In this document: in pieces, positions 4,291 to 64,000 of the stretch
Layout: each line of letters starts with the position of its first letter
Numbering within the stretch: position 1 is the first letter of the stretch
Assembly: GCA_024679065.1 (NCBI GenBank)
Contig: JAGIQG010000007.1
Span: forward strand, 58,032,001-58,096,000
DNA from: Sphyrna mokarran
Lineage: Eukaryota
Length of the DNA: 64,000 nucleotides
Direction: 5' to 3'
Translations under genes and position numbers: made by a program
The notes under the pieces: generated by a model
What the model was told of the DNA's origin: nothing
The model's database searches: none
Seen by the model: only the letters and a program-made list of their open reading frames with translations

Positions 4291-4808
4291 ATAAGGCTCA
4301 GGCGCTTGTGGGGTTAGTGTAGGTGAGTACAGTATCACTCACACAGTGATGTAAGAGAACACATGACACACATTTGGGATTCAGTGTAAGATTGAACATG
4401 TGCTCATGCAAATATGGAGACAGCTCCTAGCTTGAACGATTTATTATATATATGTATATACTTCTTTTAGTTAATAAGTATTTGCTGTTAATCTGCTTAA
4501 AGATACAAAGTCTTCTCAAATGGTTTTCCAGCTCGCTGCACTCATCTTGAGAGAAACTCAATCAAATGGTGGCATTATTATTTGGGGGGGAATGAGAGCG
4601 GGATGAAATTGAACCAAGTACAATTGGATCTGGCCATAGGGGCTGCTAATTGCTGAGGTAGGCTGTTTAAAAGCCCATCTTGCTCACTGGGACTTAGTTA
4701 CTGTTTGTTAAACAATAGGTCCTCTAGCCCTTACTCCTAACACCCATAAGCCCTTAGTCCTTTTGCTCTATATTATTTCATGCCGATTCATGCCTCCATC
4801 AACTCTAT

Positions 4809-5783
4809 CAGTGTTTTGGGGCCACTGTTGTTTGTTATTTTTATAAATGATCTGGATGAGGGTGTAGAAGGATGGGTTAGTAAATTTGCTGATGATACCA
4901 AAGTCAGAGGAGTTTTAGACAGTGAGGGTGGTTGTTACAGTTTGCAGAGGGACATAGATAAGTTGCAGAGCTGGGCTGAGAAGTGGCAAATGGAGTTTAA
5001 TGTGGAAGAGTGTGAGGTGATTCACTTTGGTAAGAGAAATACGTGTGCAGAATATAGGGCTAATGGTAGGATTCTTAGTAGTGTAGATGAGCAGAGAGAT
5101 CTCGGTGTACAGGTGTATAGATCCCTGAAAGTTGGTACTCAAGTTGATAAGGTTGTTAAGAAGGCGTATAGTGTGTTAGCATTTATTGGTAGAGGGATTG
5201 AATTTCGGAGCCAAGATGTTATGTTGCAACTGTATAAAACTCTGGTGCGGCCGCACTTGGAGTACTGTGTACAGCTTTGGTTGCCACATTATAAGAAATA
5301 TTGGAGGCATTGGAAAGGGTGCAGAGGAGGTTTACCAGGGATGTTGCCTGGTATGATGGATAGGTCTTATGAGGAAAAGCTAAGGGACTTATTTTCATTA
5401 GAGAGAAGAAGGCTAAGAGGTAACTTAATTGAGACATATAAGATGATTGGAGGGTTAGATAGGATGGATAGTGAGAGCCATTTTCCTCGGATGGAGATGG
5501 ATAACATGAGGGGACATCGCTTTAAATTAAGGGGTGGTAGTTATAGGACAGATGTTAGAGGTGGATTCTTTACTCAGAGGGTAGTAAGGGCGTGGAATGC
5601 CCTCCCTGCAGTGGTTGTGGACTCGTCAAGTTTAAGGGCGTTCAAATGGTCAGTGGATAGGCATGTGGATAGCATTGGAATAGTTTAGGTTAGAGGGTCA
5701 TAAAATTGGTTCCATTTGTCTGTGCAGCATCGAGGGCCAAAGGGCTTGTACTGCGCTGTAATGTTCTATGTTCTATGTTCTAT
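4809..5783 (+). mobile_element. 5'-truncated CR1 LINE (RT C-terminal half, 3' UTR, atgttct tail)
   Basis: ORF 4780-5688 has [36 protein letters not shown] and FFTQRVVRAWNALP; it ends in tandem (atgttct)n. Confidence 0.95.
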
Positions 5784-9784: not shown

Positions 9785-12700
9785 GAAGGCATAGAAAATG
9801 CAGAGTACAGAATATGGCCCAATATGTCTCTGCTGAATGATAAAGAGCTACCCAGCTCTGTCTTCCTGTACTTGGCCTCTAGCCCTGCAAATAGACACCC
9901 CTGCACTTTTAAAATGTGATGAGAGTTCCTGGCTCTATCACCTTCTCAAGCAAAGAGTTCCAAGTGTCGACCATTCTGGGTGAAAAATATTTTCTCATCT
10001 GCCTTCTAATTCTCCTACCAATTGTACTTAATCTGCACACTTTGTTTTTGATACCTCTTATAAGGTAAATATGTTGCTCTTATTTACTCTCTCTTGACCC
10101 CTAATAATTTTATATACTCTACTAAATTACTTCTCAGCCTTCTCTGCTCGAAGCCCATCTAAACTTTCCTTAAAGCTAACATTTTTCAATCCTGGCAGCA
10201 TCCTCATAAATATCTTCTGCACCTGCCCTAGTGTAGTCACATCTTTCCTGAAATGTGGTGGAGAAACTGCATGTAGCAGTCCAGTTTAGTCCGACTAATC
10301 TCTTGATGAGATTACAGTCACTAGAGAGATGGTGCTTGATAGGCTAACGGGGCGGAGGGCAGGTAAGTCCCCAGGACCAGATGGAATGCATCCCAGGGTC
10401 TTCAAGGAAATGGCAGAGGTGATAGCGGATGTCCTGGTAATTATCTTCCAGAATTCGCTGCACTCCGGGAAAATGCCGGAAGATTGGAAAATGGCTAATA
10501 TTACGCTGCTGTTTAAAAGCTGAACATATTCAGCGAGGAAGCCTCCAGCACCTCATCAGGCAGAGAATTCCGAAGATTCATCACCCTTTGCGTGAAGAAA
10601 CTCCTCCGCAACTCTGATCTTAAAAAAGGTAGCAGACAGAAGGCAGGGAATTATAGGCTGGTTAGTTTAATGTCTGTGGTAGGAAAAATGTTTGAATCTG
10701 TCTTCAAAGCAGAACTAATGAGGCACCTGGATACAAACTGTTTAAACGCAGCACGGATTCGTTAAGGGGAAGTCGTGCTTGACGAATTTATTGGAGTTCT
10801 ATGAGGAAGTGACTAGTGCGGTAGATAGAGGGGAACCAGTGGATGTGGTGTTTTTGGATTTCCAAAAAGCGTTTGATAAGGTGCCTCACAAAAGATTGCT
10901 GCAGAAGGTTAAGGTGCAGGGAGTCGGGGGAAGGGTGTTAGACTGGATAGAGGATTGATTGTCTAATAGGAAGCAGAGGGTAGGTATCAATGGGTGCTAT
11001 TCTGATTGGCAGCTGGTGACTAGTGGAGTATCCCAGGGTTCAGTGCTGGGGCCTCAACTATTTACCATTTATATAGATGATCTGGAGGAAGGGGCTGAGT
11101 GCAGGGTGATGAAATTTGCTGATTGCATGAAGATGAATGGAAAAGCAAATTGCGTAGAGGGTGTGGAAAGCCTGCAGAGGGATCTGGATAGGTTGAGTCA
11201 GTGGGCAAGGACCTGGCAGATGGAATATAATGTTAGCAAGTGTGAGGTTATCCAGTTTTGTAGGAATAATGTAGGAAGGATTACTATTTAAATGGTGAAA
11301 AGTTGCAGCATGCGAAGGTGCAGAGGGATCTGGGGGTCCTTGTGCATGAATCGCAAAAACACAGTATGTAGGTGCAGCAGGTGATTAAGAAGGCAAATGC
11401 AATGTTGGCCTTTATAGCTAGGGGGATAGAATATAAAAGTAGGGAGGTTCTGTTGCAGCTGTACAGGGTGCTGGTGAGGCCGCAGCTGGAGTACTGTGCA
11501 GTTTTGGTCGCCGCATTTGAGGAAGGATATATTGGCCTTGGAGTGGGTGCAGAGAAGGTTCACTAGGCTGATACCGGACATGAGGATGTTGGAATATGAG
11601 GAGAGACTGAATAGGCTAGGTTTGTACTCTTTGGAGTTTAGAAGGCTGAGAGGGGATCTTATAGAGACGTATAAGATAATGAAGGGGATGGATAGGGTAG
11701 AGGTTGAGAGACCCTTCCCGCTTAGCAAAGATAGCAGGACTAGAGGGCACAACCTCAAGATTAGGAGGGGGCCGGGTGCAGTTTAGATCAGAGTTGTGGA
11801 AGAGTTTCTTCACGCAAAGGGTGGTGAATCTTTGGAATTCTCTGCCTGATGAGGTGGTGGAAGCTTCCTCGCTGAATGTGTTCAAGAGTGGATAGGTTCT
11901 TGATTGACAAGGGAATTAAGGGTTACAGGGTGAAAGCGGGAAAGTGGTACTGAACCACTGCAGATCAGCCATGATTTTATTGAATGGCGGAGCCAGCTCG
12001 AGGAGCTGGATGGCCTACTCCTGCTCCTATTTCTGATGTTCTTATGTTTCTTATGTACAGTTCTAGCATAATCTCTCTGCTTTTATATTTTATGCCTCAG
12101 CTAAAGAAGGAAAGCATGCCCTACGCCTCCCTCCTTAAGCACCTTATTGAACTCCTGCTACCATAATGGATTTGTGGACATATACTGCAAGGTCCCTCTG
12201 TTACTCCATATTGCTTGTTATTCTTCTATTTGCTGTGTATTCCTCTGCCTTGTGGCACATCCAAAAATGTATTAGCTGACACTTCAGCAAAATGAATTCC
12301 ATTTTTTTACTTTTCTGCAAAACTGCTCCTACCATCCATAACTTTACTCAATCTCAAGCTTTTCTCCTCACTGTCATTAAGACAGCTGGTTTTTGTTTCA
12401 TCTGCAAACTTCTTTAATGTATCCCTACATTTGATCTAAATTACAAAAAGTAAGAGGCTAAGTACTGAGCCCAGCTGAACCCCACGGGTAACAACTTTCC
12501 AGTTCCAAAAATACTTGTCAATCATTCCTGTTTTTTTCCCTATCTCAAAGCCAGTTTTGGATCCAATTTGCCACTCTCCCATGAACTTCAAGAACTTTTA
12601 CTTTTTTGACCATGTGGGACCTTGTCAAATATCTTGCTAAAATCTGTACAGCGCACATCCATTGTACCTACCCTGATCAACACTACTTGTCACCTCCGCA

Positions 12701-23479: not shown

Positions 23480-25095
23480 GTACGGGTTTATCACAGGCAG
23501 ACAATGGAGAATTTATATTTGGTAATAAGGTAATGGCAAATAAACTATAAACAAATACTTGTGTCTGTCTTCATGGAGGAAAGTACAAAAATCCTCATTG
23601 AAATATTGGGGAGCTGAAGTAAATTGCAATAAGTACAAATGTAGTGCTGGAGAAATTAATGAGTTCAAAAGTTAAGAAATACCCTGGCGCTGATGCTGTA
23701 CATCCTGAGTATTGATTGAGATGGGTATAGTGATAGTGGATGCGTTGGTGGTCATCTTTCAAAATTCTATAAATTCTGGAAGTGTGCCTGTGGATTCGAA
23801 GATAGCAAATCTAACCCCACTATTTGAGAAAGGGGGGGTGGGTAAGATAAAACAGGGAGCTACTAAACATGTTATAAAGATGTAAAACTGATCATTTGGA
23901 AAATAATGGTAAGATTTGGCAGAATCAACATGGATTTATTATATTTGACAAACCTGTTGGAGTTTTTTGAGGATGCTATTTAGTAGGATATATAAGGGGA
24001 AACCACTAGAGGTAGTGTATTTGAAATTTCAGAAAGCTTTCGATAAGGTCCTGCACAAGAAGCTAGTAAACAAAAAAGAGCACATTAGATTAGGAGTAAT
24101 ATACAGCAAGGATTGAGGATTGATTAACAGACGGAAAACAAAGAATAATATAAGCAGCTCATTCTCAGGTTGGCAGGCTGGGATGTGAGGACCATTGTAG
24201 TATTTCCAAGTTTGCTCAAGTTTTGACACAAAACTTGAGGATGCAAAGAGGCTTCAAGATGATTTAGACAGGTTAAGTGAGTAGGGAAGAACATGCAACA
24301 TGGAATACTTTGTAGAGAAATGTGAAGTTATCCACTTTGAAACGAAAAAAGAAGCAAAATGTAGAGTATTCCTTCAAACAGGAGCGACTGGGAAATATTG
24401 ATGTTCAAATAGAGCTGAATGTTACTGAAACTATGTGTAGATGCATCAAAAAATTAGGAATACAAAGGATATCTTAACTTTTATTCCAAGACAATTTGAG
24501 CACAAATATAAGGAAATCTTGCTACTGAGACCACACATGGAGTACTGTGTACAGTTTTGGTTTTCTTACCAAAGGAAGGAAATACTAGCCATCAAGGGAG
24601 TGCAGTGGACTCTCATTAGACTAATTTCTGGGATGGTAGGATTATCCTATGAGAAAAGATTGATAAGAGAATGGCTATACGCATCCTCTACATGTTATAA
24701 GAATATGTGTATAAAATTCTTAGAAGCCTTGTCAAAATACAGGAAGGATATTTCCTCTAGCTGGGGAGGGGTGGGTGGTTGGTGTTCAAGAGCTAGGGGG
24801 CACAGAATAAGTAGGCTATTTAGGACCAAGATGAAGAAGAATTTCTTCAGTCTGAGGATGGTGAATCATTGGAATTCTCTACCCCAGAGGACTGTGGAGA
24901 TTCAGTCTTTGAGTGTGTTTGAAGCAGAGATTGATAGATTCCTACATATCAATGACATCAATGAATATGGAGAAAGTATGAAGAATGTGTTAGCTAGAAG
25001 AGTAGCCATGATCTAGGTAAGTAGTACAGCAAGCTCAAGGAATTGAATGGTCCACATCTGCACCTATTTTCCTATGTCATATGTTCCTATGTTTC
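23480..25095 (+). mobile_element. Old degenerate CR1 LINE (RT plus 3' UTR)
   Basis: FQKAFDKVLHK, LRPHMEYCVQFW, FFSLRMVNHWNSLP and a tatgttcctatg tail. Confidence 0.9.
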
Positions 25096-25568
25096 AGTTT
25101 TAGGCTGGCCTAGTCTGCTTGGTTGGAGTACATACAGCCTGTGTGCTCAATGTCATGTTTCAGATGAATTTCTACTTCAATGCTTCCTTACAATTACTAT
25201 TTACTTTAAAATCAGTTCATGTGATCCATCATTCCATTATAACGACGAGGTTGAATCTTAAGCACCATAAGAAATTATGCAATCGAATCGAGATCATTAT
25301 GAATCACAACTAAATACTCATTATATAACATTCTCAGCATGTCTCCAACCATTCACAAGCACCAAGTTACTTAATATCATACTTCCCCATGTCAATCATT
25401 GCCCTTTCACCTGTCAATCATTGTACTCAACTCATCCATTCCACCTGCAACATTCCTGGTGTTAAAGTAGAGATGATGTAGAGAAGATGGCGTTGGACTG
25501 GGGTAAACACAGTAAGAAGTCCCACAACACCAGGTTAAAGTCTAAACGGTTTATTTGGTAGCAAAAAC

Positions 25569-25609
25569 CCACTAGCTTTCAGAGAGCTGCTTCTTCCTCA
25601 GGTAAGTGG
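25569..25609 (-). ncRNA. Minimal hammerhead motif in pLTR, weakened stem II
   Basis: Minus strand: ccacttac CTGAGGA agaagcagctctct GAAA gc TA gtgg. Confidence 0.6.
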
Positions 25610-26051
25610 GAGTTCTGTTCACAAACGGGGCATATATAGACACAAACTCAATTTACAAAATAGTGGTTAGAATGTGAGTCTTTACAGGTAATCGAGTCTT
25701 AAAGGTACAGACAATGTGAGTGGAGAGAATGTTAAGCACAGGTTAAAGAGATGTGTATTGTCTCCAGCCAGGACAGTTAGTGAGATTTTGCAAGCTTAGG
25801 CAATTCGTGGAGGTTACAGATAGTGTGACATGAACCCAAGATTCCGTTTGAAGCCGTCCTCGTGTGCGGAATTTGACTATCAGTCTCTGCTCAGCAACTC
25901 TGCATTGTCATCTGTTGTGAAGGGTGCCTTGGAGCATATTAATATTAATATAATCTTATTGATATTAATATCTGTAAAGACTCGCATTCCAACCATTATT
26001 TTGTAAATTAAGTTTGTGTCTTTATATGCCCTGTTTGTGAACAGAACGCTT

Positions 26052-26090
26052 ACTTACCTGGTGAAGGAGCAGCGCTCTGAAAGCTGGGGG
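26052..26090 (+). ncRNA. Decayed minimal hammerhead motif in pLTR
   Basis: tac CTGGTGA aggagcagcgctct GAAA gc TG: A6 and the cleavage-site base are mutated. Confidence 0.5.
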
Positions 26091-26524
26091 TTTTTGCAAA
26101 CAAATAAACTTGTTAGACTTTAACCTGGTGTTGTGAGACTTCTTACTGTGTTAAAGTAGAGGCCATCCAGCCTGGCCTTACTCCCTTGAAACTTAATACA
26201 GCAGTCTCTCTGACTTGTTATGCTATATGATTTCATGCCCTTATCCTGCTAACTGTGTGTGTTCCCTTCCCCTGCAAAATTAGCTTCAATTTCTCCAACA
26301 GTACTAGCAAAACATCCTGCAAGGATGTTAGTCCCATTCTAGTTCAGATGTAGGTTGTCCCACTTGTACAGATCCCACCTTCCTCAGAAATGTTCCCAGT
26401 GTTCTAGGAATCTGAAACCCTCTCTCCACACCAACTCTTAAGCCATGCATTCATCTGCATTATTCTCTTATTGTGCTTGGGACTAATCCTGAGATTACAA
26501 CCTGCCAGGTCTTGTACTCAAATT

Positions 26525-43830: not shown

Positions 43831-44289
43831 ACTCACTCCAAACTGTATTCCTGAATCCACTCAGAAACATATACCAACTGAGATCAAAGTGTGTATGCTG
43901 GTGAAGGATGCAGGGGAATGATGTGACAATAGTCCTCTGATAGCCTCTGTTCTTCTTCAGTGGTGGATAAATGGTCCACCAAGATGGCAGCCCTCTGTTC
44001 CTGTTGTTGATCTGTGAGGGAAAACAGAACGAAGGGTGCTTCTCACTCCAGGCACTGAATCTGCTGCAGTTCACATCTGTCTATAAGTTGGGGGATTCAT
44101 TTGCTTTATTCCAAGAGGATGCAAGACTTGGGGTTTTCACACTTTCACCATGAAGTAAGTCAAGGTTTATTTGTTTAAGTGGAGTGTTCACCTCTTTGTG
44201 ATCCTGGGGAAGAGGACCTCTCACCTTGCCCAAGTAGCTTAGAGGAGAACATGCACAGAATCACCATTGAGCCTTGGGGTTTTTAGGTT

Positions 44290-45049
44290 TTTGGATCAGA
44301 GGTTATTGCAAATGCTACTCAAAATATGCTAACACTGAACAGAATGAATTAGATATTGTTTTACTTAAGACTTTGAAAAATTCTTCAAGCACTGTATGCA
44401 TTTTCTTTAACAGCAACTCTATCAGAAGATACAGGTATCTTTCCCATGCATTCCAATCACACTAAATACCCAACAATGGACATTATTCCCTTTTATGCAC
44501 ACCAGGGTTGAGATTCCTGGGACTAATTGGGAGAGAAATTGAGCCTTGAGTTTCTCTTCTTGCCAAGTTATTTTCTGCTGTAGTTTCTGAGGAGGATGGT
44601 GGGGTCCATTTAAACAAGGCATCAACATTTACTTTCACATCAAGCAATGGCACAGCTGCTACCTCAATCCTCACCTCTGACCACCAGGTGGTCAGTCAAA
44701 CTGCCTGTCAACCAGCCATCAATGAGTCAACTGGTCTGATATCACTCAGGAAACTGGAGTCAGAGTGGCTGGGCCTTTTTAATCTGCTTTCAGTTCTGCC
44801 TTTTCTCTCCCAATGGGTTCCAGAAATCCCAACTCTGGTGTGTATAAAAGGGAATAGTATCCATTGTTAGGTATTTGGTATGATTGGAATGCATGGGAAA
44901 GGTACTTGTATCTTCCGATAGAGTTGCTGTTAAGGAAAATACACACAGTGGTTGGAGAATTTTCCAAAGTCTTAAATAAAACAATATCTAACTCATCCGC
45001 TCAGTGTTAGCACATTTTGAGCAGCATTTGCAATAACCTCTGATCCAAA
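44290..45049. repeat. Long inverted repeat: ~250-bp arms (44290-44538, 44802-45049), 263-bp spacer
   Basis: Manual alignment of the arms gives about 85-90% identity, mostly transitions. Confidence 0.9.
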
Positions 45050-45517
45050 CACCAAACTCCAGATCTGTTTCATTGTGTCTGAATGCCAAGAGTACCAAAT
45101 GAATACCTCTGGAAATAAAACAGTCAGTGTCTCAGAGAGGAACATCTTTCAGTTCTTCCATAAGCCTTTTTCCAGACACTGCTTCCAGACTTCTCCTTCG
45201 GAGCAGCAGAAAATTCCTTAAAAGATCACTTGAATGGCCACCGTGCTGTATATCAGCTTCAGTGGCAGGGCCTGCAATTTATACCATGTCATGCTGGTTT
45301 TGTAAGACAACCCAGCTTCAGAGCACAGTTCCCAGATGAAAAATAAAACCCTACCACATTGCGGGAATTTAATGCTGTGAAATGTGCACCCAATTGGCTG
45401 ACACAGAATTAGCATCTGTCAGACTTTTTGTCCCCTCATCTTTGGAATTCCTTTTGATGTTTTCTGGAAGTTAGACAGAGAACCAATTGTGATGAACAAG
45501 CTGATCCTTCTGCATTT

Positions 45518-47548
45518 GGTCTCAAATTCCTTTCCTCGACATTATAAGTCAGAACTATCAAAAATCGGAATGAGGTGGCGGGTAGGGGGAGAGGATATTC
45601 CCCCAGAAGCACCAGCGTCAGGCGACATGTCAATTTCAAGACAGCAATCCTGGCACCAGCAATAATCATCGGGGCAGCGGAAAGTCAGGACAGGAATCCT
45701 GCTTTCCTCCCACTTGAGACCAGTTAAACTTGTCAAAAAAGTTAACTTAGAACTTCTTGGCAGGGTCAGTGGAATATTCAAAGGAAAAATGGCTTTCAGG
45801 AGTTGTCGGTTTTTGAACAGCTGGGGGCAGACAATAGGGAATCTGTCACATCTGTCATCTGCATTACCCTGACTCCATAAACAAAGATAGTGTTGCAAAG
45901 GAGGAATGAGGACTTGGTAAGCGGGTGCTTTTAATACTACGCAGGTGGCAGAAAGAGTTGGTGCTCAGTGCTCAGGCTTTGAACTCAATTAGCACCTGGT
46001 ACTGTGGGGTGGTAGAAAAGCAGGGGCTAATGATGCCAAACACAACTGGGTGGTCACCTGCCTATCTCCAGTGATGATAAAGGGCAAAAGTTTTCCTAAG
46101 AAGTGTCAAAACCCAGGTATGAGGAGTGCCTGTTGGAAGACAAAAGGCAAGGCACCAAGGCCAAACATAAGATCTATGACCAAACACAAAACTATCTGGA
46201 CATGAACGAGAACCAGTGCAGGAGACTCTGCAACTCTCCAGGCTGATGGCGACAGAGATGTGTTCCCTCATTGCTTACACAATATAACATTGAGTACCAT
46301 CCTTGCTCTGCCCACCAAAGTCACTATGCTCTTGAGCTTCTTCATGTGGGTCTCTTTCCAGTCATCAGTTGCAGACTTTAGTTGCACAGCATCTTGCTAG
46401 TCACTGACAATCTCTTTTCCATGAGCTGGACAGCATGTTTATTCAACAACCAACATGGGCTCGCAGGCACTGAGGGCATAGGGTTCAACTGCTATCACTG
46501 GAGTTCCACAGATGCAAGCATTGCCAATTGCACCAATATAGCCATTAAAACACTCATGACCAGCCAGTGATTCCATTCAATTCCATGTTCAACAACTCTC
46601 TCCATGCGTGCATTCGCTTTCAGGTGTCCATTTTTTCAGGAATCATCCCCACCTCCATTCCTGCTTTCCTGATTCCTTCATCATTCACCAATTTAGGCTG
46701 TCTCTGATATTCACTCCAACCAGTAAAGAGTGTGAATGGAACTTCGGTGATAAGACATCCTTGAAAACATGGCTAATTATCCCTTTCAGGGAAACACAGA
46801 CAGAAGCACAGAGGAGATGAAACCAATGTCACCTGCTTGCCAGGACAATCATTGAACAGGCCTTTTGTCTTCTGAAGATGCCACTCCAGTGTCTGGACAG
46901 GTCTCCTAAAAGAGTCTGAGTCATGAAAGGGAATAGTGTCCATTATTGGGTATTTAGTATGATTGGAATGAATGGGAAAGGTACCTGTATCTTCTGATAG
47001 AGTTGCTGTGGTGGTCTGCTGTGCTCTGTACAATATGGTACACCAGAGAGGTGTGAACTCGAGAGCTGTGAAATCCTGGAAGGTGGTGGAGGAGGACATG
47101 AAAAAGAAAGAGGAATTGAGGTGGGCCAAGATGAGGCTAAACATAGCAGTGTCCTTGTTGCAAAATAAGGTGGTCACCTCTTGCCACTCTGTAGCAAGAC
47201 CCTCTCCTTCATTGCTTCCAGCATTAGATCCAGGATAGCATCAATGAAGTGATGTTTTGGCTCCAGTGTGACATCTCATCTCCCCCAGTGAAGGGCAAAG
47301 CTTTGACACAAACCACAGACCCCTCCCGTAGGACAAACAGTAGCCTCTGTGATTACTGCTGGATGAAGTCCAAATCAGTCCCATGCTTCATCTCTCCCAC
47401 CTCTGTTCACACCCACAAAAGTTCTAACTGGAAAGGATGCCATAACAATGAATGGCTAACCTCTGTGAAAATCTGAATTTCAGTCAATTTAAGGCAGATT
47501 TCGGACCCAAAAACCTGTTTCCAATCTTTATGGTTAAAATTCAGTCCA
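45518..47548 (+). mobile_element. Degenerate Harbinger transposon with HARBI1-like DDE transposase pseudogene (~46150-47150)
   Basis: DSFII...W.FGDK...TWLIIPFR, QRR*NQCH..ARTIIEQAF.LLKM...CLDRS and VVVCCALYNM..QRG followed by an acidic tail; TIR-like ends ggtctcaaattc / aaaattcagtcc. Confidence 0.75.
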
Positions 47549-47964: not shown

Positions 47965-50130
47965 GGCACATAACCTGTTTGCCTGGCGGATGCTGAAAAT
48001 GCAAATCAGAGCCCTAAACATGGGTATCAACAGCACATTTTCTGGGTTACATTCAGTCTGTGATCATCCAGAGACTGGAAAATCTGGGTCAATATTTTAG
48101 GAATTGACTTTCTCTCCTGTTGATTATTTTATTGATATTTGCTAGTAGAAATGCATAATGCATAATTGTTTGAGATTCCAAAATTGAATTGGAGGTGTGT
48201 TTAGAGGTTAAACAGAAACTATAATTACTGGTTATTTGATTATCCCTAAACAGACAAACATCACTCCTGTTTAGTCAGGATTGTGATGGGATTTATAAAA
48301 CCTTTATAATTTAGAACACAGTTTGAATTTTTGTACTTGCAACAAATCCCAACTTTTTCCACAGGGGATGCTTTATGTAATTAAGAGGAAATTCACTGGC
48401 TGCGAAAACATTATAAATGACTACAATTGTTGATGTTGTAACTCAGATTTCAAATGACCCTTGAACTTATTGAATGAGTAGTTCAAAGCACACTAAATGC
48501 TTGATAATTATCTCTGTGTCTGAGTGCTTGCGCTTTAGATTCAGATATTTTATTAGTCTCTGAACTTTACTTCTTATTTTTTATTAAACTTGCTCTGCCT
48601 CCAGATGGGACAAGTACCAAATGCTAAAATGAAATACAAGGCCTTATTCTTCAGCTAAAACCTTTCCAAAAATTTCCTTGAGCAAGAAGTTTTAGTTTCT
48701 GTTTTACTGGAACATGCTGAGCAGTTTTTTTGTAACTTAATCATGGGAAATTAGAAAGAAGTTAAATACAGAATTTAGTGCATCATCTTTTGTGTAATTT
48801 TCCATTTTCCCTTTTCATGTTTATATTGATATATTCCTCACCATCGGACAATAGGCAAGACAGACAGGGATAAAACTGAAAAGGAAGAAAGTTAATGCCA
48901 TATAACTCAGCATTATTAGGTTGAGGTTCGAGTAATAAATTGTTTAAGCTTCCAGTCCACATTATAGATTCTTAAACTGTCTTTGAACACAGACAAAGAT
49001 AAAAGAACATCACAATTCTGTCTCTTGCTGTTCTACTGAATCAGTGACACTTCATGGCTGTTGTTGCTTTGCAGTTAATAATATTTAACAGCCACACACC
49101 TTCATTTTGACAGGAGAGAAATAGATTCTAGATGAAAATCATTATATCAGTGAAATGACTTGAAAAAGATTCACAAATAAAGTGGCACCAATCAGCATTG
49201 ACTGGTAATTATGAAGCAAGCTGTGGGGAAGGCTGGTACAGAAAGTTGAAATAAGTAATGCTAAGATAAGTTACATTGTGAGATATAAGAACATCTTTTC
49301 TCTATTTGCATTAAGCTATACCTGAAATAAATGATGCTAATGATTATAAAGAACTGAGGAAAATTATTTAGCCATACTGTCATGAATACAAAATGTACTC
49401 CAGAGGCAGGAAAATTTAAATAGGGGGTCAATGAGACCTAATGGTTTTATTTCTATCAAGCCACATTCAACTTTTCATAGCAGGATAACCATGAAATTTG
49501 ATGCAGTTTTACAATCGGCAAGACCAAGAGTGCAACAAGTGTTGATATAAATGAGCTTTCGCTGTTCAGCAGCCTTTTGTTAAAGTTATGGGTTAGATTT
49601 TTACACTGGTGCAAATTGCATACTTAAGTTTTTATTCCATTCTTAAAGTTACAAAGCCAATGCTCAGGACAAACCCAAATCCATTTTTCGCTTGTTCCAA
49701 AAACCAAGTTCATAATCCAATTCAAGGTCCCCACAAAGGAGACAAACAAGATTCAAGCTGACAAAATAAGGCATTGCACCCCACCTTGAGCTTGATCTGA
49801 TGCTTAAAAGGAAGATGTAAATGTATAATATGTATTGAGTATATGTTTAGCCCACATTTCATGATTTAATTCTGAGGTAATTAATCTAGTCATTGCCTGT
49901 TAAAGGAATCCGTTACCATGGCATCCCCTAAAATGTATGCATTAATTAACACAAAATAAAGAACCAATTTTCATTCCTATGTCAAATCAAAGTTTTTTTA
50001 AAAAATTATTTGTGGGATATGGGTGTTCCTGGCTATGATGTAGAGATGCCGGCATTGGACTGGGGTAGTAAGAACTCAGTAAGAATCTAGCAACATCAAT
50101 TTTAAATCCAACCAATTTATTTGATAGTAA

Positions 50131-50169
50131 ATTTGCGAGCTTTCGACTTTCTGTCTTCATCAGGCAAAT
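50131..50169 (-). ncRNA. Minimal type I hammerhead ribozyme, intact catalytic core
   Basis: Minus strand: ATTTGC CTGATGA a GAC agaaa GTC GAAA gc TC GCAAAT = 6-bp stem I, CUGANGA, stem II, GAAA, palindromic AGCU stem III, UC cleavage site. Confidence 0.85.
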
Positions 50170-50383
50170 GCAGTATTCTGGTCTGCAATAGCACACATAT
50201 CAACACAGACAGTCACAGATTGCTGATTAGAATGCGAATCCTTACATCTAACCTGCTATTCAAGTGTTAAAGTGGCTAACAATGTGTGTGAAGGGAATCC
50301 TGAGCATTGGTTAGAGAATTGTGTATTTTCTCCAGACAGCACAGTAAGTGAGGTTTTTTGCTAACCCAGGCAAGTTACGGGGG

Positions 50384-52093
50384 TTACAGATAGTGTGTCA
50401 TGAAGCCAAGATCCCTATTAAGACCGTCCTCATGTGTGTGGAACTTGGCTATCAGTCTCTGCTCAGTGACTCTGCGCTGTTGTGTGTCACGAAGGCCCCC
50501 TTGAAGAACATTTACCCGCAGGTCGGAGGCCGAATGCCCGTGACTGCTGAAGTGTTCGCTCACAGGAAGGGAACTGTTTTGCCTGGTGATTGTTGAGCGA
50601 TGCTCATTCACCTGCTGTCGTTGTGTCTGCATGGTCTCCCCAATGTACCATGCTTCGGGACATCCTTTCTTGCAATGTATTAGGTAGACAATGTTGGCCG
50701 AGTTGCAAGAGTACTGGTGAATGGTATCCTCACGTTTGATGATGTCGTCCATGTCTATGATCTGACATGTCTTGCAGAGGTTGCTGTGGCAGGGTTGTGT
50801 GGTATTGTGGTCTCTGTTCTCCTGAAGGTTGGGTAGTTTGCTGTGAACAATGATCTGTTTGAGGTTGTGCGGTTGTCTGAAAGCAAGAAGTGGGGGGGTG
50901 GGGATGGCCCTAGCGAGATGTTCATCGTCATCAATGATATGTTGAAGACTCCGGAGAAGATGTCGTAGCTTCTCCGCTCCGGGGAAGTACTGGACAACAA
51001 AGGGTACTCTGTCCACCGTGTCCCGTGTTCGTCTTCTGAGGAGGTCAGTGCGGTTTATCGCTGTGGCACGTCGGAACTGTCGATCAATGAGTCGAGCGCC
51101 ATATCCTGTTCTCACGAGGGCATCCTTCAGTGTCTGGAGGTGTCTGTCACGATCCTCCTCATCTGAGCAAATTCTGTGTATACGGAGGGCTTGTCCATAG
51201 GGAATGGCTTCTTTAACGTGTCTAGGGTGGAAGCTGGAGAAGTGGAGCATTGTGAGGTTGTCTGTCAGTTTGCGGTACAGTGAGGTGCTGAGGTGACCAT
51301 CCTTGATGGAGATGCGTGTGTCCAAGAATGCAACTGATTCTGGAGAATAGTCCATGGTGAGTCTGATGGTGGGATGGAACTTGTTGATATCATCATACAG
51401 TTGTTTCAATGATTGTTCACCATGAGTCCAAAGGAAAAAGATGTCATCAATGTATCTAGTATATAACTTTGGTTGAAGATCTCGTGTGGTGAAGAAGTCT
51501 TGTTCGAACCTGTGCATGAAGATGTTGGCATACTGAGGTGCGAATTTGGTCCCCATGGCTGTTCCGTGTGTCTGGATGAAAAGCTGATTGTTGAAGGTGA
51601 AGACATTGTGGTCCAAGATGAAGCGGATGAGTTGTAAAATTGCATCCGGAAACTGGCAGTTGTTGGCATTGAGTACTGAGGCAGTTGCAGCAATACCATC
51701 GTCGTGGGGGATGTTGGTGTAGAGCGCCGAGACATCCATTGTGGCAAGGAGTGTCCCTGGTTCAACTGCTCCATGTGTGCTGAGTTTCTGTAGGAAGTCC
51801 GTAGTGTCAAGACAAAAGCTGGGGGTTCTTTGTACAATGGGTTTCAGGATGCCCTCGATATAGCCGGAGAGGTTCTCACACAGGGTCCCATTGCCTGATA
51901 CGATGGGACGGCCGGGTATGTTTGCCTTGTGTATCTTTGGGAGGCAGTAGAGATCTCCAATGCGGGGAGTACGTGGAATGAGAGCCCAGAGGGTGTTCTG
52001 AAGGTCCAGATCAAAGGTTTTGATCAGAGTGTTGAGTTGACGAGTGTGTTCTTCTCTCGTCAACTCTAATGAGTTGAGAAGAACTTCTCTCAT
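50384..52093 (-). CDS. PLE reverse transcriptase plus GIY-YIG endonuclease, open 569-aa frame lacking the native N-terminus
   Basis: LPKIHK, GRPIVS, DVSALYTNIP, GTAMG, RYIDDIF, Cys linker PCHSNLCKTC, IVYLIHC...WYIGET and E...N; its ATG lies inside the repair patch, so expression is doubtful. Confidence 0.8.
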   Translation of the reverse strand: MREVLLNSLELTREEHTRQLNTLIKTFDLDLQNTLWALIPRTPRIGDLYCLPKIHKANIPGRPIVSGNGTLCENLSGYIEGILKPIVQRTPSFCLDTTDFLQKLSTHGAVEPGTLLATMDVSALYTNIPHDDGIAATASVLNANNCQFPDAILQLIRFILDHNVFTFNNQLFIQTHGTAMGTKFAPQYANIFMHRFEQDFFTTRDLQPKLYTRYIDDIFFLWTHGEQSLKQLYDDINKFHPTIRLTMDYSPESVAFLDTRISIKDGHLSTSLYRKLTDNLTMLHFSSFHPRHVKEAIPYGQALRIHRICSDEEDRDRHLQTLKDALVRTGYGARLIDRQFRRATAINRTDLLRRRTRDTVDRVPFVVQYFPGAEKLRHLLRSLQHIIDDDEHLARAIPTPPLLAFRQPHNLKQIIVHSKLPNLQENRDHNTTQPCHSNLCKTCQIIDMDDIIKREDTIHQYSCNSANIVYLIHCKKGCPEAWYIGETMQTQRQQVNEHRSTITRQNSSLPVSEHFSSHGHSASDLRVNVLQGGLRDTQQRRVTEQRLIAKFHTHEDGLNRDLGFMTHYL

Positions 52094-52834
52094 TCTTCTC
52101 TCTAATCTGCTGGTAACTGTCTGTAGTGTTTCTCATTGTTTAGTTGTTGGTACACTTCTTCACAGTAGTCCATTCTGTTCAGTATGATGGTGGCGCCTCC
52201 TTTGTCTGCTGGTTTGATGACAATGTTGCGGTTGGTCTTGAGAGCACAGATGGCCTTGCTTTGTGCTTGGGTGATGTTCAGGACTGTCTTGTAAGTGCGG
52301 TTGATGAATCTGGTGTTCACGCACCTCCTGATGGCTTGGGCATACATGTCCAGTCGGGGGCAGCGGCCTTCCGGAGGAGTCCAATTGGATTCATTCCTCT
52401 TTGGTTGCTGCACTGCGGATCCCTCTGTCGGCTGTTCTGGTTCATTAGCTGTCTCATTGAGTCCACTATTGGCCTCTTGGGGTTTGTGGAAGAACTCATG
52501 CAGCCTCATTTGCCTGATGAATTCCTCTGTGTCCGCTGATGGGGTCCATTTTGGTGGTGGAACAGAAATTGAGCCCTCAGCCAAGAACTTCGATTTCCTC
52601 TGATTGAAGTGTGTAGTCCGACAAGTTAACAATGGATCTCCCTGCGGTAGTGCTGTTTTCTACTGTGGTGCCAAGGGAGGCTTGGTTGTTGCTGGTGGCG
52701 ATGCCGAGTTTTTCAAGATTCCTGTTCTTGGTGTGCATGTAAATGGTGTAGTTTCTTCGTCTCATCTACTTGGCAAAGTTTCGCAGCTGATCTGCGTTCT
52801 GAGTGCAAGTTGCTATTGCAGACCAGAACACTGC

Positions 52835-52873
52835 ATTTGCCTGACAAAGACATAAAGTCGAAAGCTCGCAAAT
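52835..52873 (+). ncRNA. Minimal hammerhead motif, G8 to A mutant (probably inactive)
   Basis: ATTTGC CTGACAA a GAC ataaa GTC GAAA gc TC GCAAAT. Confidence 0.75.
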
Positions 52874-52967
52874 TTACTATCAAATAAATTGGTTGGATTT
52901 AAAATTGGTGTTGCTAGATTCTTACTGAGTTCTTACTACCCCAGTCCAACGCCGGCATCTCTATATC

Positions 52968-55638
52968 ATGACTACTATCGACACCGCATACTGCCGGATC
53001 CAAGTGGAGAGGATCTCTGAGAGAATTGCACATATCGACACAGACATCAAGTTTCTACAGAGATGCAAGAAAGCAGACAGGATACCAAAGGGACTACAGA
53101 TCACGAACCCACTCAGGTCAACCTATAACACAGACTACGTTGAGAGGCTTTGCCGTCGCACCTCTCTCACACTCCTCAATCACCTCATACACCAGCTCTA
53201 TAGCAAACGCCGCACCCTGGAAAGTAAAATGGAATACATATACTCAACTTGCGCTCAGGACGCAGATCAGCTGCGAAACTTTGCCAAGTAGATGAGACAA
53301 AGAAACTACACCATTTACATGCACACCAAGAACAGGAAACTTGAAAAACTCGGCATTGCCACCAGCAACAACCAAGCCTCCCATTGCACCACAGTAGAAA
53401 ACAACACTACCGCAGGGAGGTATATTGTTAACTTTTCGGACTACACACTTCAATCAGAGGAAATCGAAGTTCTCGGCCGAGGGCTCAATTTCTGTCCCAC
53501 CACCAAAATGGACCCCATCAGTCCTGCAGCAGACACAGAGGAATTCATCAGGCAAATGAGGCTGCATGAGTTCTTCCACAAACCCCAAGAGGCCGATAGC
53601 GAACTCAATGAGACAGCTATTGAACCAGAACAGCCGACAGAGGGATCCGCAGTGCAGCAACCGAAGAGGAATGAATCCAATTGGACTCCTCCAGAAGGCC
53701 GCTGCCCCCGACTGGACATGTATGCCCAAGCCATCAGGAGGTGTGTGAACACCAGATTCATCAACCGCACTTACAAGACAGTCCCGAACATCACCCAAGC
53801 ACAAAGCAAGGCCATCCGTGCTCTCAAGACCAACCGCAACATTGTCATCAAACCAGCAGACAAAGGAGGCGCCACCGTCATACTGAACAGAACGGACTAC
53901 TGTGAAGAAGTGTACCGACAACTAAACAATGTGAGACACTACAGACAGTTACCAGCAGATCCAACCAAAGAACACACTCGTCAACTCAACACTCTGATCA
54001 AAACCTTTGATCTGGACCTTCAGAACACCCTCTGGGCTCTCATTCCACGTACTCCCCACATTGGAGATCTCTACTGCCTCCCAAAGATACACAAGGAAAA
54101 CATACCCGGCCGTCCCATCGTATCGGGCAATGGGACCCTGTGTGAGAACCTCTCCGGCTATATCGAGGGCATCCTGAAACCTATTGTACAAAGAACCCCC
54201 AGCTTTTGTCTTGACACTACGGACTTCCTACAGAAACCCAGCACACATGGAGCAGTTGAACCAGGGACACTCCTTGCCACAATGGATGTCTCAGCGCTCT
54301 ACACCAACATCCCCCACGAAGATGGTACTGCTGCAACTGCCTCAGTACTCAATGCCAACAACTGCCAGTTTCCGGATGCAATTTTACAACTCATCCGCTT
54401 CATCTTGGACCACAATGTCTTCACCTTCATCAATCAGCTTTTCATCCAGACACACAGAACAGTCATGGGGACCAAATTCTCACCTCAGTACGCCAACATC
54501 TTCATGCACAGGTTCGAACAAGACTTCTTCACCACACGAGATCTTCAACCAAAGTTATATACTAGATACATTGATGACATCTTTTTCCTTTGGACTCATG
54601 GTGAACAATCATTGAAACAACTGTATGATGATATCAACAAGTTCCATCCCACCATCAGACTCACCATGGACTATTCTCCAGAATCAGTTGCATTCTTGGA
54701 CACACGCATCTCCATCAAGGACGGTCACCTCAGCACCTCACTGTACCGCAAACCAACAGACAACCTCACAATGCTCCACTTCTCCAGCTTCCACCCTAGA
54801 CACGTTAAAGAAGCCATTCCCTATGGACAAGCCCTCCGTATACACAGAATTTGCTCAGATGAGGAGGATCGTGACAGACACCTCCAGACGCTGAAGGATG
54901 CCCTCGTGAGAACAGGATATGGCGCTCGACTCATCGATCGACAGTTCCAACGTGCCACAGCGATAAACCGCACTGACCTCCTCAGAAGACGAACACGGGA
55001 CACGGTGGACAGAGTACCCTTTGTTGTCCAGTACTTCCCCGGAGCGGAGAAGCTACGACATCTTCTCCGGAGTCTTCAACATATCATTGATGACGATGAA
55101 CATCTCGCTAGGGCCATCCCCACCCCCCCACTTCTTGCTTTCAGACAACCGCACAACCTCAAACAGATCATTGTTCGCAGCAAACTACCCAACCTTCAGG
55201 AGAACAGAGACCACAATACCACACAACCCTGCCACAGCAACCTCTGCAAGACATGCCAGATCATAGACATGGACGACATCATCAAACGTGAGGATACCAT
55301 TCACCAGTTACTCTTGCAACTCGGCCAACGTTGTCTACCTAATACATTGCAAGAAAGGATGTCCCGAAGCATGGTACATTGGGGAGACCATGCAGACACA
55401 ACGACAGCAGGTGAATGAGCATCGCTCAACAATCACCAGGCAAAACAGTTCCCTTCCTGTGAGCGAACACTTCAGCAGTCACGGGCATTCGGCCTCCGAC
55501 CTGCGGGTAAATGTTCTTCAAGGGGGCCTTCGTGACACACAACAGCGCAGAGTCGCTGAGCAGAGACTGATAGCCAAGTTCCGCACACATGAGGACGGTC
55601 TTAATAGGGATCTTGGCTTCATGACACACTATCTGTAA
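52968..55638 (+). pseudogene. PLE RT-GIY-YIG polyprotein, interrupted by an in-frame TAG (53289-53291) and a 1-nt frameshift near 55308
   Basis: ORFs 52968-53291, 53292-55418 and 55288-55638 are consecutive pieces; KPADKGG, RYIDD and VVYLIHC/YIGET motifs. Confidence 0.92.
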
Positions 55639-55852
55639 CCCCCGTAACTTGCCTGGGTTAGCAAAAAACCTCACTTACTGTGCTGTCTGGAGAAAATACA
55701 CAATTCTCTAACCAATGCTCAGGATTCCCTTCACACACATTGTTAGCCACTTTAACACTTGAATAGCAGGTTAGATGTAAGGATTCGCATTCTAATCAGC
55801 AATCTGTGACTGTCTGTGTTGATATGTGTGCTATTGCAGACCAGAACACTGC

Positions 55853-55891
55853 ATTTGCCTGACGAAGACAGAAAATCAAAAGCTTGCAAAT
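55853..55891 (+). ncRNA. Minimal hammerhead motif, G12 to A mutant with broken stem II (probably inactive)
   Basis: ATTTGC CTGACGA a GAC agaaa ATC AAAA gc TT GCAAAT. Confidence 0.7.
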
Positions 55892-57267
55892 TTACTATCA
55901 AATAAATTGGTTGGATTTAAAATTGGTGTTCCTGGCTAGCCAGTATTATTTCTCATCCTGAGTTGCCTTTGTTCAGAAGGCAGTTGAAAGTTAACCACAT
56001 TATTAGTGGTTCAGGAGTCACATGCCGGCCAGACCAGATAAGGATGTCCGATTTTCTTCCCTAAAGGACATTAGTAAACTGATGGGTTTTTCTGATAATC
56101 AACAATGGTCTCATAGTCATCAGCAGATTCTTAATTCCAGATTTTTTTTATTGAATTCAAATTCCACCATCTGACATGATGGGATTTGGTCACCAGGCAT
56201 TAGCTAAGTTTCTGAATTAATACTCTAGCAATAATACCACTAGTCCATCATCTCCCTCCTGATGATTATTTAAACCTATTGATAAGATTGTGTATAATAT
56301 TCTGGCACCTCAGATTGTTTTGCAGAGATATTAAAGTTGTTGAATTGCCAGTTGTTATCCTGATTGGCCTATTTTATTTATTTGGGTGGTATTTGTGTTT
56401 TGCATGTATAGACCTCCTCCAGGCAGAACTCTCAGCACTGCGAGGAAGCTTTACAACCATAGACATGTGGACATGTTAAATATTCTTTTTGTTTGTTTTT
56501 CTAAGTTCAGAATCATATAATTGCTATTTACTCCTCTGGCACCCACCAGAAATTCAGGGTACAGTAATTACCACTAATTTGCATTTTTACATGTTCTTAA
56601 ACATCAAATATTGTATCCAACATATTTATGATTTATTGGAATAGAACGTGGAAATTAAAACATTAATTAAGTTCAAAATTGTGGAAAAGGTCTTGCTTTG
56701 GTAAACCAGGCTGCTATTGTTCTGTTTTTGATACTTTAATTTTCTCAGATTCACTTTGGGTGTACATTTCAGTTGCTGGATTCCAAATTCATTCAATAAA
56801 ATAATTGGGATATACTTAATAATAGCCAGAGAAGAACACAGACTTTTTCTATTATGCATGGCATATACATATGATCTTTATGTTTAAATCCATGCCATAG
56901 TGAAGATCGCCAATCAAATTATGTGATTTTTGGTAAATGTGCATATTTATGTTCGTTTTTATTGAGAGGTAAAGTTGAGGTACAAAAGGGCAAATAAGGT
57001 ATTAAGCATGTCAACCATTTTTATGTGCTGATAACATATGTTGTGAAATTATATCAAATAATTTAAAGTTCAACTTGAAACTCCAACCATATTAACGTCT
57101 GATGGACGTGGCACATTGGATGAAAATAACATTAAGCAAATTTACTTATGTTACTTATTTGAAACAAGGTTGGACTAGCAAGGGGATTGCATTTCCTCAC
57201 TCTATGTAGTGTATTACTGGCGCATTATGTTGTGTAAGAGGAAGAATTGGGATAGGCATAGTATCAG

Positions 57268-63414: not shown

Positions 63415-64000
63415 TTAACAGAGTCCTCACCTGGACTCTGGCTGGCAGATAGAAGACAGAGGGTGGTGGTTGATGGGAGATATTCATCGTGGAGTTCGGT
63501 GACGAGTGGTGTGCCTCAGGGGTCTGTTTTGGGGCCCCTGCTGTTTGTAATTTTTATAAATGATCTGGATGAGGGTATTGAGGGATGGATCAGAAAATTT
63601 GCAGATGATACTAAAGTTGGTGGTGTGGTAGATAGTGAAGAGGGGTGTTTTCGTTTACAGAGTGACTTGGACAAGTTGCAGAGCTGGGCCGAGAGGTGGC
63701 AAATGGAGTTTAATGTGGAAAAGTGTGAGGTAATGCACTTTGGCAGGAAAAATAAATGTGTAGAGTTTAGGGCTAATGGTAGGGCTCTTAATAGTGTTGA
63801 GGAACAGAAGGATCTTGGTGTATGTGTCAATAGATCCCTGAAAGTAGGCAGTCAAGTGGATAAAGTTGTTAAGAAGGCATATGGAGTCTTAGCTTTCATT
63901 GGTAGGGGGATTGAATTTCGGAGCCGCAACGTCATGTTGCAACTGTACAAAACTCTAGTGCAGCCGCACTTGGAGTATTGTGTGCAGTTCTGGTCCCCAC
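63415..64000 (+). mobile_element. 5'-truncated CR1 LINE RT, runs off the window edge
   Basis: [45 protein letters not shown] and LYKTLVQPHLEYCVQFWSP; same subfamily as 4809-5783. Confidence 0.95.

Follow-up and report, generated by a model that had tools for sequence, protein, structure and literature searches.

Two inverted PLE insertions in the window

The window, a 64,000-nt stretch of the genome of the shark Sphyrna mokarran, holds two PLE insertions that each consist of two arms joined head-to-head within one TSD. Insertion 1, derived from the 25-kb element (family B), is made up of these features:

25456..25458, plus strand: left half-site CTG of the target palindrome
25459..25472, plus strand: left copy of the 14-bp TSD
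25473..25951, minus strand: long arm, the 3' end of a family B PLE with pLTR and tail, ending ...TCTACATCAT (ATG +2)
25573..25601, minus strand: decayed minimal hammerhead-like core in the long arm, from a motif scan
25952..25968, no strand: 17-nt AT-rich centre linking the 5' ends of both arms
25969..26152, plus strand: short arm, family B, without tail, ending at -31 and with at most 5 nt (GTGTT) in common with the TSD
26058..26086, plus strand: decayed minimal hammerhead-like core in the short arm, from a motif scan
26148..26161, plus strand: right copy of the 14-bp TSD
26164..26166, plus strand: right half-site CAT (2/3 match to CAG)

The 479-bp minus arm thus lies head-to-head with a 184-bp plus arm that ends ...CTTACTGTGTT, and the reconstructed empty site reads CTG-N16-CAT. 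This target sits inside an older host repeat. No empty allele of the insertion was readable in contigs of other species, and paralogues of the host repeat were used as a substitute. In all seven paralogous copies examined, a single 14-mer stands between identical flanks, indicating that insertion 1 made its duplication and that the repeated 14-mer is not a chance occurrence.

Insertion 2, derived from the 50-kb element (family A), includes an ORF:

50019..50021, plus strand: left half-site ATG (2/3 match to CTG)
50022..50035, plus strand: left copy of the 14-bp TSD
50035..52812, minus strand: long arm, family A, 2.8 kb, with 5'-truncated RT-EN coding region, pLTR and tail
50137..50163, minus strand: type I minimal hammerhead-like core, stem I ATTTGC/GCAAAT
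52811..55930, plus strand: short arm, family A, 3.1 kb, pLTR-ORF-pLTR, stopping at -55 on GGTGTT
52841..52867, plus strand: second copy of the family A hammerhead-like core
52968..55638, plus strand: PLE ORF with N-terminal helical domain, RT (RVT_1), C-X4-C-X2-C linker and GIY-YIG-like endonuclease
55925..55938, plus strand: right copy of the 14-bp TSD
55941..55943, plus strand: right half-site CAG

The empty site of insertion 2 is ATG-N16-CAG. Its short arm holds the ORF start, which its long arm lacks, and the ORF is interrupted twice, by a stop (53289-53291) and by a frameshift near 55300. The cut predicted for the family A hammerhead-like core falls 100 nt upstream of the ATG.

An earlier note on this DNA had proposed that both insertions carry one integration signature, and its description of the junctions is accurate. 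An exact second copy of the 14-mer at 25459-25472 lies at 26148-26161, and the 14-mer at 50022-50035 is found again at 55925-55938; GGTGTT stands at both TSD starts (25458-25463 and 50022-50027); the minus arms run to ...TCTACATCAT, at 25473 and 50035; and the plus arms stop on GTGTT or GGTGTT, at 26152 and 55930. We likewise agree that the 25-kb element represents a second PLE family, since its 76-78% likeness to the 50-kb element over the pLTR-proximal region indicates two different, related families. The ORF start context at 52960-52970 had been given as tctacatcat but reads tctatatcatg, with the ATG at 52968. With the A of the ATG as reference, the two GTGTT stops lie at non-homologous pLTR positions: -31 for the 25-kb and -55 for the 50-kb element. 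The latter is an outlier, shared by 1 of 39 other family-A pairs.

The RT domain of the window ORF scored above the RVT_1 cut-off in a profile search, and the top structural matches of the model of P0005, a full-length relative (63% identical), were telomerase RT. GIY-YIG had no direct Pfam match in the window ORF; the C-terminus reads VVYLIHC..C..WYIGE followed by His residues, and shares 46% identity with that of P0020, which has PF01541. Before the EN lies the linker PCHSNLCKTC, which is zinc-finger-like and of the form CX2-5CxxC; in the available text of PMC8557442, such a linker ahead of the EN defines the Neptune and Nematis clades. Judged from their sequence, both window elements are Neptune-type PLEs, the linker marking the 50-kb element as Neptune/Nematis type by that definition. 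The further features are those of EN+ PLEs, namely a single telomerase-related RT ORF, a C-terminal GIY-YIG with CCHH motif, pLTRs in tandem or inverted order, a TSD and a one-sided 30-40-bp tail (median tail 37 nt). The closest named relatives of the ORF of the 50-kb element are shark proteins (80-87%) and turtle proteins (43-46%).

In both families, a putative hammerhead-like core motif with stems I and II was recovered in the pLTR by pattern and folding; Rfam returned no hammerhead in the elements at the gathering score or at E<=5, and no sequence relative of the PLE protein was found in the PDB. A bias of Neptune insertions to microsatellites has been hypothesised (PMC8557442, in the text available), but by inspection none of the 64 reconstructed empty sites was a microsatellite target.

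Arm ends, duplications and target sites across the genome

Because our initial genome searches included the CATCAT end, they were biased to long arms and were replaced by end-blind anchors, upstream pLTR words with 3,049 and 2,155 exact genomic matches. DNA was taken around the first listed anchor matches on one contig (C1), from which most sampled copies derive. Among 115 candidate head-to-head pairs, 64 passed the TSD score, a score that 1 in 400 mismatched junction pairs reached, and 51 were dropped; setting aside the two window sites leaves a discovery set of 62 pairs (39 family A, 23 family B). After the motif described below had been fixed, 60 new regions were taken as a held-out set, whose 62 anchors gave 26 inverted insertions, 6 single ones and 30 without validated TSD. 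Since many anchors lack a validated TSD (111 of the 192 end-blind anchors, 30 of the 62 held-out), the sample is skewed towards clean or young insertions.

In each family (100 and 95 arms) the arm ends form two peaks, at about -4..+6 and about -42..-29 from the A of the ATG. The asymmetry between arms that the earlier note saw twice is strict: all 64 TSD-validated inverted pairs, 48 of them from the end-blind sample, consist of one long and one short arm, and the held-out inverted insertions have a short partner in 26 of 26 cases. This one-arm asymmetry corresponds to the published PLE 'tail' (PMC11167929, in the text available). Long arms end at -2..+4 in 50 of 62 pairs, and so the proposed fixed end at the AUG exists, but in the light of the available text of PMC11167929 it is most plausibly taken for an internal RT start rather than the RNA's 3' end. 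Short arms end at -43..-29 in 54 of 62 pairs, a zone of ~14 nt, and the median difference between long and short arms is 37 nt (n=62). A family-A end peak at -54 (6 of 100 arms) was discounted, the validated pairs inspected there being subfamilies that diverge from the reference at this point; seven held-out partner ends also lie at -54. We also rejected the idea that the short-arm end marks precise endonuclease cleavage at the CTG of the element itself, as these ends spread over ~10-14 nt.

In the discovery set (n=62), 42 pairs had a TSD of 12-13 bp and 4 had one of 14 bp, 58 fell within 10-15 bp, and the mode was 12; held-out inverted TSDs measured 10-14 bp, again with a mode of 12 and with 14 bp in 8 of 26, and single-arm insertions had TSDs of similar length to inverted ones. 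The staggered cut of ~14 nt proposed from the window's two cases is therefore right in being narrow, but the peak lies at 12-13 bp, and we replaced the fixed 14-bp TSD by about 12 bp plus chance extension. In insertion 1, a 12-nt stagger probably underlies the 14-bp TSD, the remaining 2 nt agreeing with the element by chance.

Junction ambiguity averaged 1.6 nt at the short arm and 1.4 nt at the long arm, compared with 0.8 and 0.7 nt in simulations, none of which (0 of 3,000) reached the observed values, and a register-based microhomology test on 33 sites agrees with this excess. Microhomology is thus generic, 1-3 nt long and enriched at both arms. The 5' extents of the arms were compared in 45 simple pairs, leaving aside 19 complex or unresolved ones of the 64: it was the short arm that reached further 5' in 18 and the long arm in 15, with equal extents in 12, which indicates that the arms are not copies of each other. 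We did not take equal extents as pointing to a common RNA end, since such equality could result from alignments breaking off where subfamilies differ. In the 7 pairs with a minority subfamily sequence that were spotted by eye, it was present in both arms every time.

In the reconstructed empty sites, the TSD is closely flanked by CTG on its left and CAG on its right. When spacers of 8-25 were scanned across the 64 sites, only 16 stood out, with 21 perfect sites and 38 with 5-6 of the six bases (next best, 4 and 13). Without the window sites, 21 of 62 were perfect and 36 of 62 had 5-6 bases, compared with 0.15% and 2.0% at random positions, and the motif was found in both families (5-6 bases in 22 of 39 family-A and 14 of 23 family-B sites). 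Across the 38 registered sites, spacer position 2 is the commonest TSD start (19 sites) and position 14 the commonest end (22 sites), which places a 12-bp TSD centrally, with 2 nt to each half-site.

At spacer 16, 4 of the 26 held-out inverted sites were perfect and 10 had 5-6 bases. In 8 of 26, both half-sites were found 0-4 nt from the TSD (background 0.9%); at least one was in 22 of 26 (background 19%), and the modal distance was 2 nt on both sides. The effect was weaker in the held-out than in the discovery set, and spacers of 15 and 17 occur. Genome-wide counts, which tested one half-site only and may count an anchor more than once, gave CAG at 14-19 nt beyond the family-A long-arm anchor (11,944 anchors) 6,823 times, compared with 1,681 times at 24-29 nt (4.1x); for the B-type long-arm anchor, the counts were 7,037 and 2,374 (3.0x). 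Contigs of other organisms were also consulted. Among ~300 flanks behind a short-arm end (26148), the majority letters at positions 15-17 are CAG in runs X2, X4 and X6 and CAA in run X12, with neighbouring rows blurrier than the CAG in these runs, and CTG stands 13 nt before 25509 in X14 and X16, the two of four runs (X11, X14, X16 and X17) that gave such a row.

At spacer 16, 26 of the 62 sites in the discovery set and 16 of the 26 inverted ones in the held-out set match at fewer than 5 of 6 bases, and single-arm insertions match the motif less often (7 of 21; held-out, 1 of 6). CTG-N16(±1)-CAG is a preference, not a requirement. In the literature we found no spaced palindromic PLE target or fixed 12-nt stagger, although subscription papers and supplements may hold one; the target rule is apparently undescribed, whereas the inverted layout, the tail and two RT starts have already been published.

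Two further observations concern these junctions. The primer end of the short arm appears trimmed by 1-2 nt in 10 of the 38 registered sites, whereas that of the long arm reaches position 14 in 35 of 38, a hint that the two primings differ in timing. Near-identical flanks also recur at different long-arm junction loci (for example ...CAGAAGCCAG, ...AGAAGACAG and ...CTGTAGCCAG), which suggests repeated insertion at one position of abundant host repeats that carry the motif.

Cleavage, priming and the template RNA

The reading that we favor, with a probability of a little under 0.6, is that Neptune-type head-to-head PLEs insert at a CTG-N16(±1)-CAG target with a ~12-bp central TSD, by way of a symmetric EN pair and with both overhangs priming on one RNA. 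The target motif, the TSD length, the pairing of long with short arms, the microhomology excess at both arms and the independent 5' extents can be read directly from the junctions. The RT-start ends of both arms adjoin the TSD, so the primer on each strand was its 3'-OH, located at the duplication's far end; extension of both 3'-OH ends would in turn imply 3' overhangs of ~12 nt and nicks ~2 nt 5' of CAG. The two-fold symmetry and the narrow stagger are most simply explained by two nuclease domains that would act together. On this reading, the endonuclease, as a symmetric pair, would nick each strand ~2 nt 5' of CAG, and these nicks, 2 nt inside the half-sites, would leave 12-nt 3' overhangs. 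Both overhangs would then simultaneously prime reverse transcription on one RNA, one near the AUG and the other ~37 nt upstream, with two RTs in line and the downstream RT displacing the upstream cDNA. Pairing of 1-3 nt would help the starts, and host repair would join the two cDNA ends at the centre. Without successful second priming, the product would be one 5'-truncated arm flanked by a similar TSD.

A single shared RNA is the simplest reading of the long-plus-short pairing in 64 of 64 validated and 26 of 26 held-out pairs and of the 7 of 7 subfamily-concordant pairs, although the concordance could alternatively reflect one master element being active at a time. In vitro, PAc cuts and extends both strands, has two internal RT starts that bound the tail and is predicted to be a dimer (PMC11167929, in the text available). 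The same source holds points that count against our reading: the anole Poseidon enzyme prefers an AT-rich 5'-ATT-3', does not differ between strands in where RT starts and initiates on non-homologous RNA in vitro.

Much of the target pattern could also arise if a monomeric GIY-YIG enzyme nicked 2 nt 5' of CAG, primed at one RNA site and then nicked the nearest similar site of the other strand ~12 nt off; the palindrome would then be one specificity used twice in sequence, without a dimer. GIY-YIG homing enzymes do nick sequentially as monomers (PMC8557442 and PMC2853131, in the text available), the spacing wobbles from 15 to 17, and many sites have only one good half-site (either half-site near the TSD in 57 of the 62 discovery sites, both in 26). 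An uncoupled second nick would be expected to give variable TSDs (PMC8557442), whereas the stagger stays within 10-15 bp in 58 of 62 pairs; moreover, the two half-sites are about equally enriched (43 and 40 of 62), and sequential nicking of the I-BmoI type gives an overhang of 2 nt, not 12 (PMC2853131). A monomer is thus, in our judgment, unlikely, though not remotely so. Alternatively, both ends may be primed on two RNA molecules, one per subunit, with the complex imposing the asymmetry. We consider this improbable: it would accommodate two arms that copy the same pLTR stretch and have independently varying 5' ends, but a symmetric complex should also yield long-plus-long and short-plus-short pairs, of which there are 0 among the 64 validated, and the arms share subfamily variants in the 7 informative pairs.

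Very improbable, to our mind, is the fold-back of one cDNA by self-priming proposed in PMC3846280 and PMC8557442 (in the text available), with the tail difference arising when the endonuclease resolves the intermediate. Either arm may hold sequence that is absent from the other (18 and 15 of the 45 pairs), including the ORF start in a window short arm, and the short-arm ends spread over ~14 nt with excess microhomology rather than marking a sharp cut; the palindromic centres of some inverted pairs and the equal 5' extents in 12 of 45 are what speaks for it. The rule drawn in the earlier note, in which the RNA has a fixed end at the AUG and the other strand anneals to an internal GUGUU after a ~14-nt cut, fits both window insertions and the general enrichment of microhomology, and some annealing of primer to template does survive in the excess of 1-3 nt. 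Its GUGUU specificity is ruled out by the counts: GTGTT opens the TSD in one of the 62 other pairs and in none of the 32 held-out insertions, GTGTT words are where the short arm stops in 1 of 39 family-A and 2 of 23 family-B pairs, and the modal TSD is 12. This rule is almost certainly wrong, and the window's two cases are high-microhomology examples that share one word by chance.

How tandem and inverted PLE insertions are built is an open problem in the field (PMC8557442, in the text available). Published EN+ PLEs resemble the shark families in having head-to-head arms in one TSD, a one-end tail that reaches the ORF start region (30-40 bp in inverted-pLTR insertions, PMC8557442), a minimal hammerhead-like pLTR motif and an RT with C-terminal GIY-YIG (PMC8557442, PMC3846280). 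They differ in that the available text of these papers describes variable TSDs (9-10 bp in Adineta vaga Pen2/Pen2a, PMC3846280), a microsatellite or moderate target bias, and inversions that arise by self-priming or resolution; in the shark families, TSDs centre on 12 bp in a spaced palindrome, and every validated pair is long plus short. PAc, a Poseidon element of Anolis carolinensis and the only full-length PLE protein to have been reconstituted, is alike in its cleavage and extension of both strands, its two internal RT starts bounding the tail and its predicted dimer (PMC11167929). PAc is unlike the shark families in its clade, in having no linker zinc finger, in its preference for ATT and in starting 111-118 nt into the ORF, and the available text of PMC11167929 describes no fixed stagger, bipartite target, pairing of one start with each strand or microhomology. 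In the shark families, RT starts lie at and before the AUG.

In LINE-1 twin priming, both 3' ends of the target prime cDNA on one RNA, giving an inversion inside one TSD. One start lies at the poly(A) tail and the other at an internal site that varies, the segments are largely non-overlapping, and the nick motif is one-sided and T-rich. In contrast, the shark insertions have no poly(A), both ends in fixed start zones ~37 nt apart, overlapping arms and a two-fold symmetric target. GIY-YIG homing and restriction enzymes (I-TevI and I-BmoI; the Eco29kI dimer and the Cfr42I tetramer) share the fold family, 3' overhangs and, in the restriction forms, multimeric assembly, whereas the homing enzymes are monomers that leave 2-nt overhangs by sequential nicks (PMC2853131, in the text available); the shark PLE would instead leave an overhang of ~12 nt between two 3-bp half-sites.

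A broader form of the favored reading is tentative, and we would give it somewhat less than even odds: shark Neptune-type PLEs may possess a dimeric, restriction-like GIY-YIG (CTG-N16-CAG, 12-nt 3' overhangs) and two in-line RTs on one RNA, under a rule common to shark lineages. If true, the inverted pLTRs, one-sided tail and TSD of PLEs would all follow from one mechanism. A spaced-palindrome nuclease making a 12-nt staggered break would differ both from the one-sided nicking of LINEs and from the 2-nt cuts of GIY-YIG homing enzymes. The symmetric target, the predicted nick and the pairing of long with short arms together provide an exact substrate and products for an in vitro assay or a structure, and the motif helps annotators to place the boundaries of PLEs, and to recognise empty sites, in a genome with more than ten thousand copies.

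Other repeats in the window and at the sampled loci

A third PLE piece, a single arm of family B type, lies at 36400-36887 on the plus strand and ends ...AACCTGGT (about -54), short of both usual zones; no TSD was seen by eye for this piece. It adjoins one arm of an inverted repeat at 31.0-31.6 kb and 35.9-36.4 kb. The two arms of this repeat, at 31047-31599 and 35865-36403, are long and imperfect, contain G/C-rich 41-nt tandem units, lie ~4.4 kb apart and are possibly the ends of a DNA transposon. A 774-bp element at 44283-45056 with inverted arms of ~255 bp (88-90% complementary), to which an 87-bp piece at 46923-47009 is related, looks like a MITE-type or fold-back element, and showed no pairing with the PLE arms in a self-comparison of the window. 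LINE RT fragments, which we take from their motifs to be CR1/L2-like, are located at 4750-5688 (with a weak RVT_1 match), 11288-11782, 24441-25016 and 63525-64000.

At three of the sampled loci, L142 (contig C1, 80908390-80914690), L115 and L216, two separate PLE insertions lie within a few kb of each other, which suggests local clustering. At two others, L023 and L026, family-B structures are duplicated or nested and junction sequences are repeated, apparently through segmental duplications or template switches after insertion.
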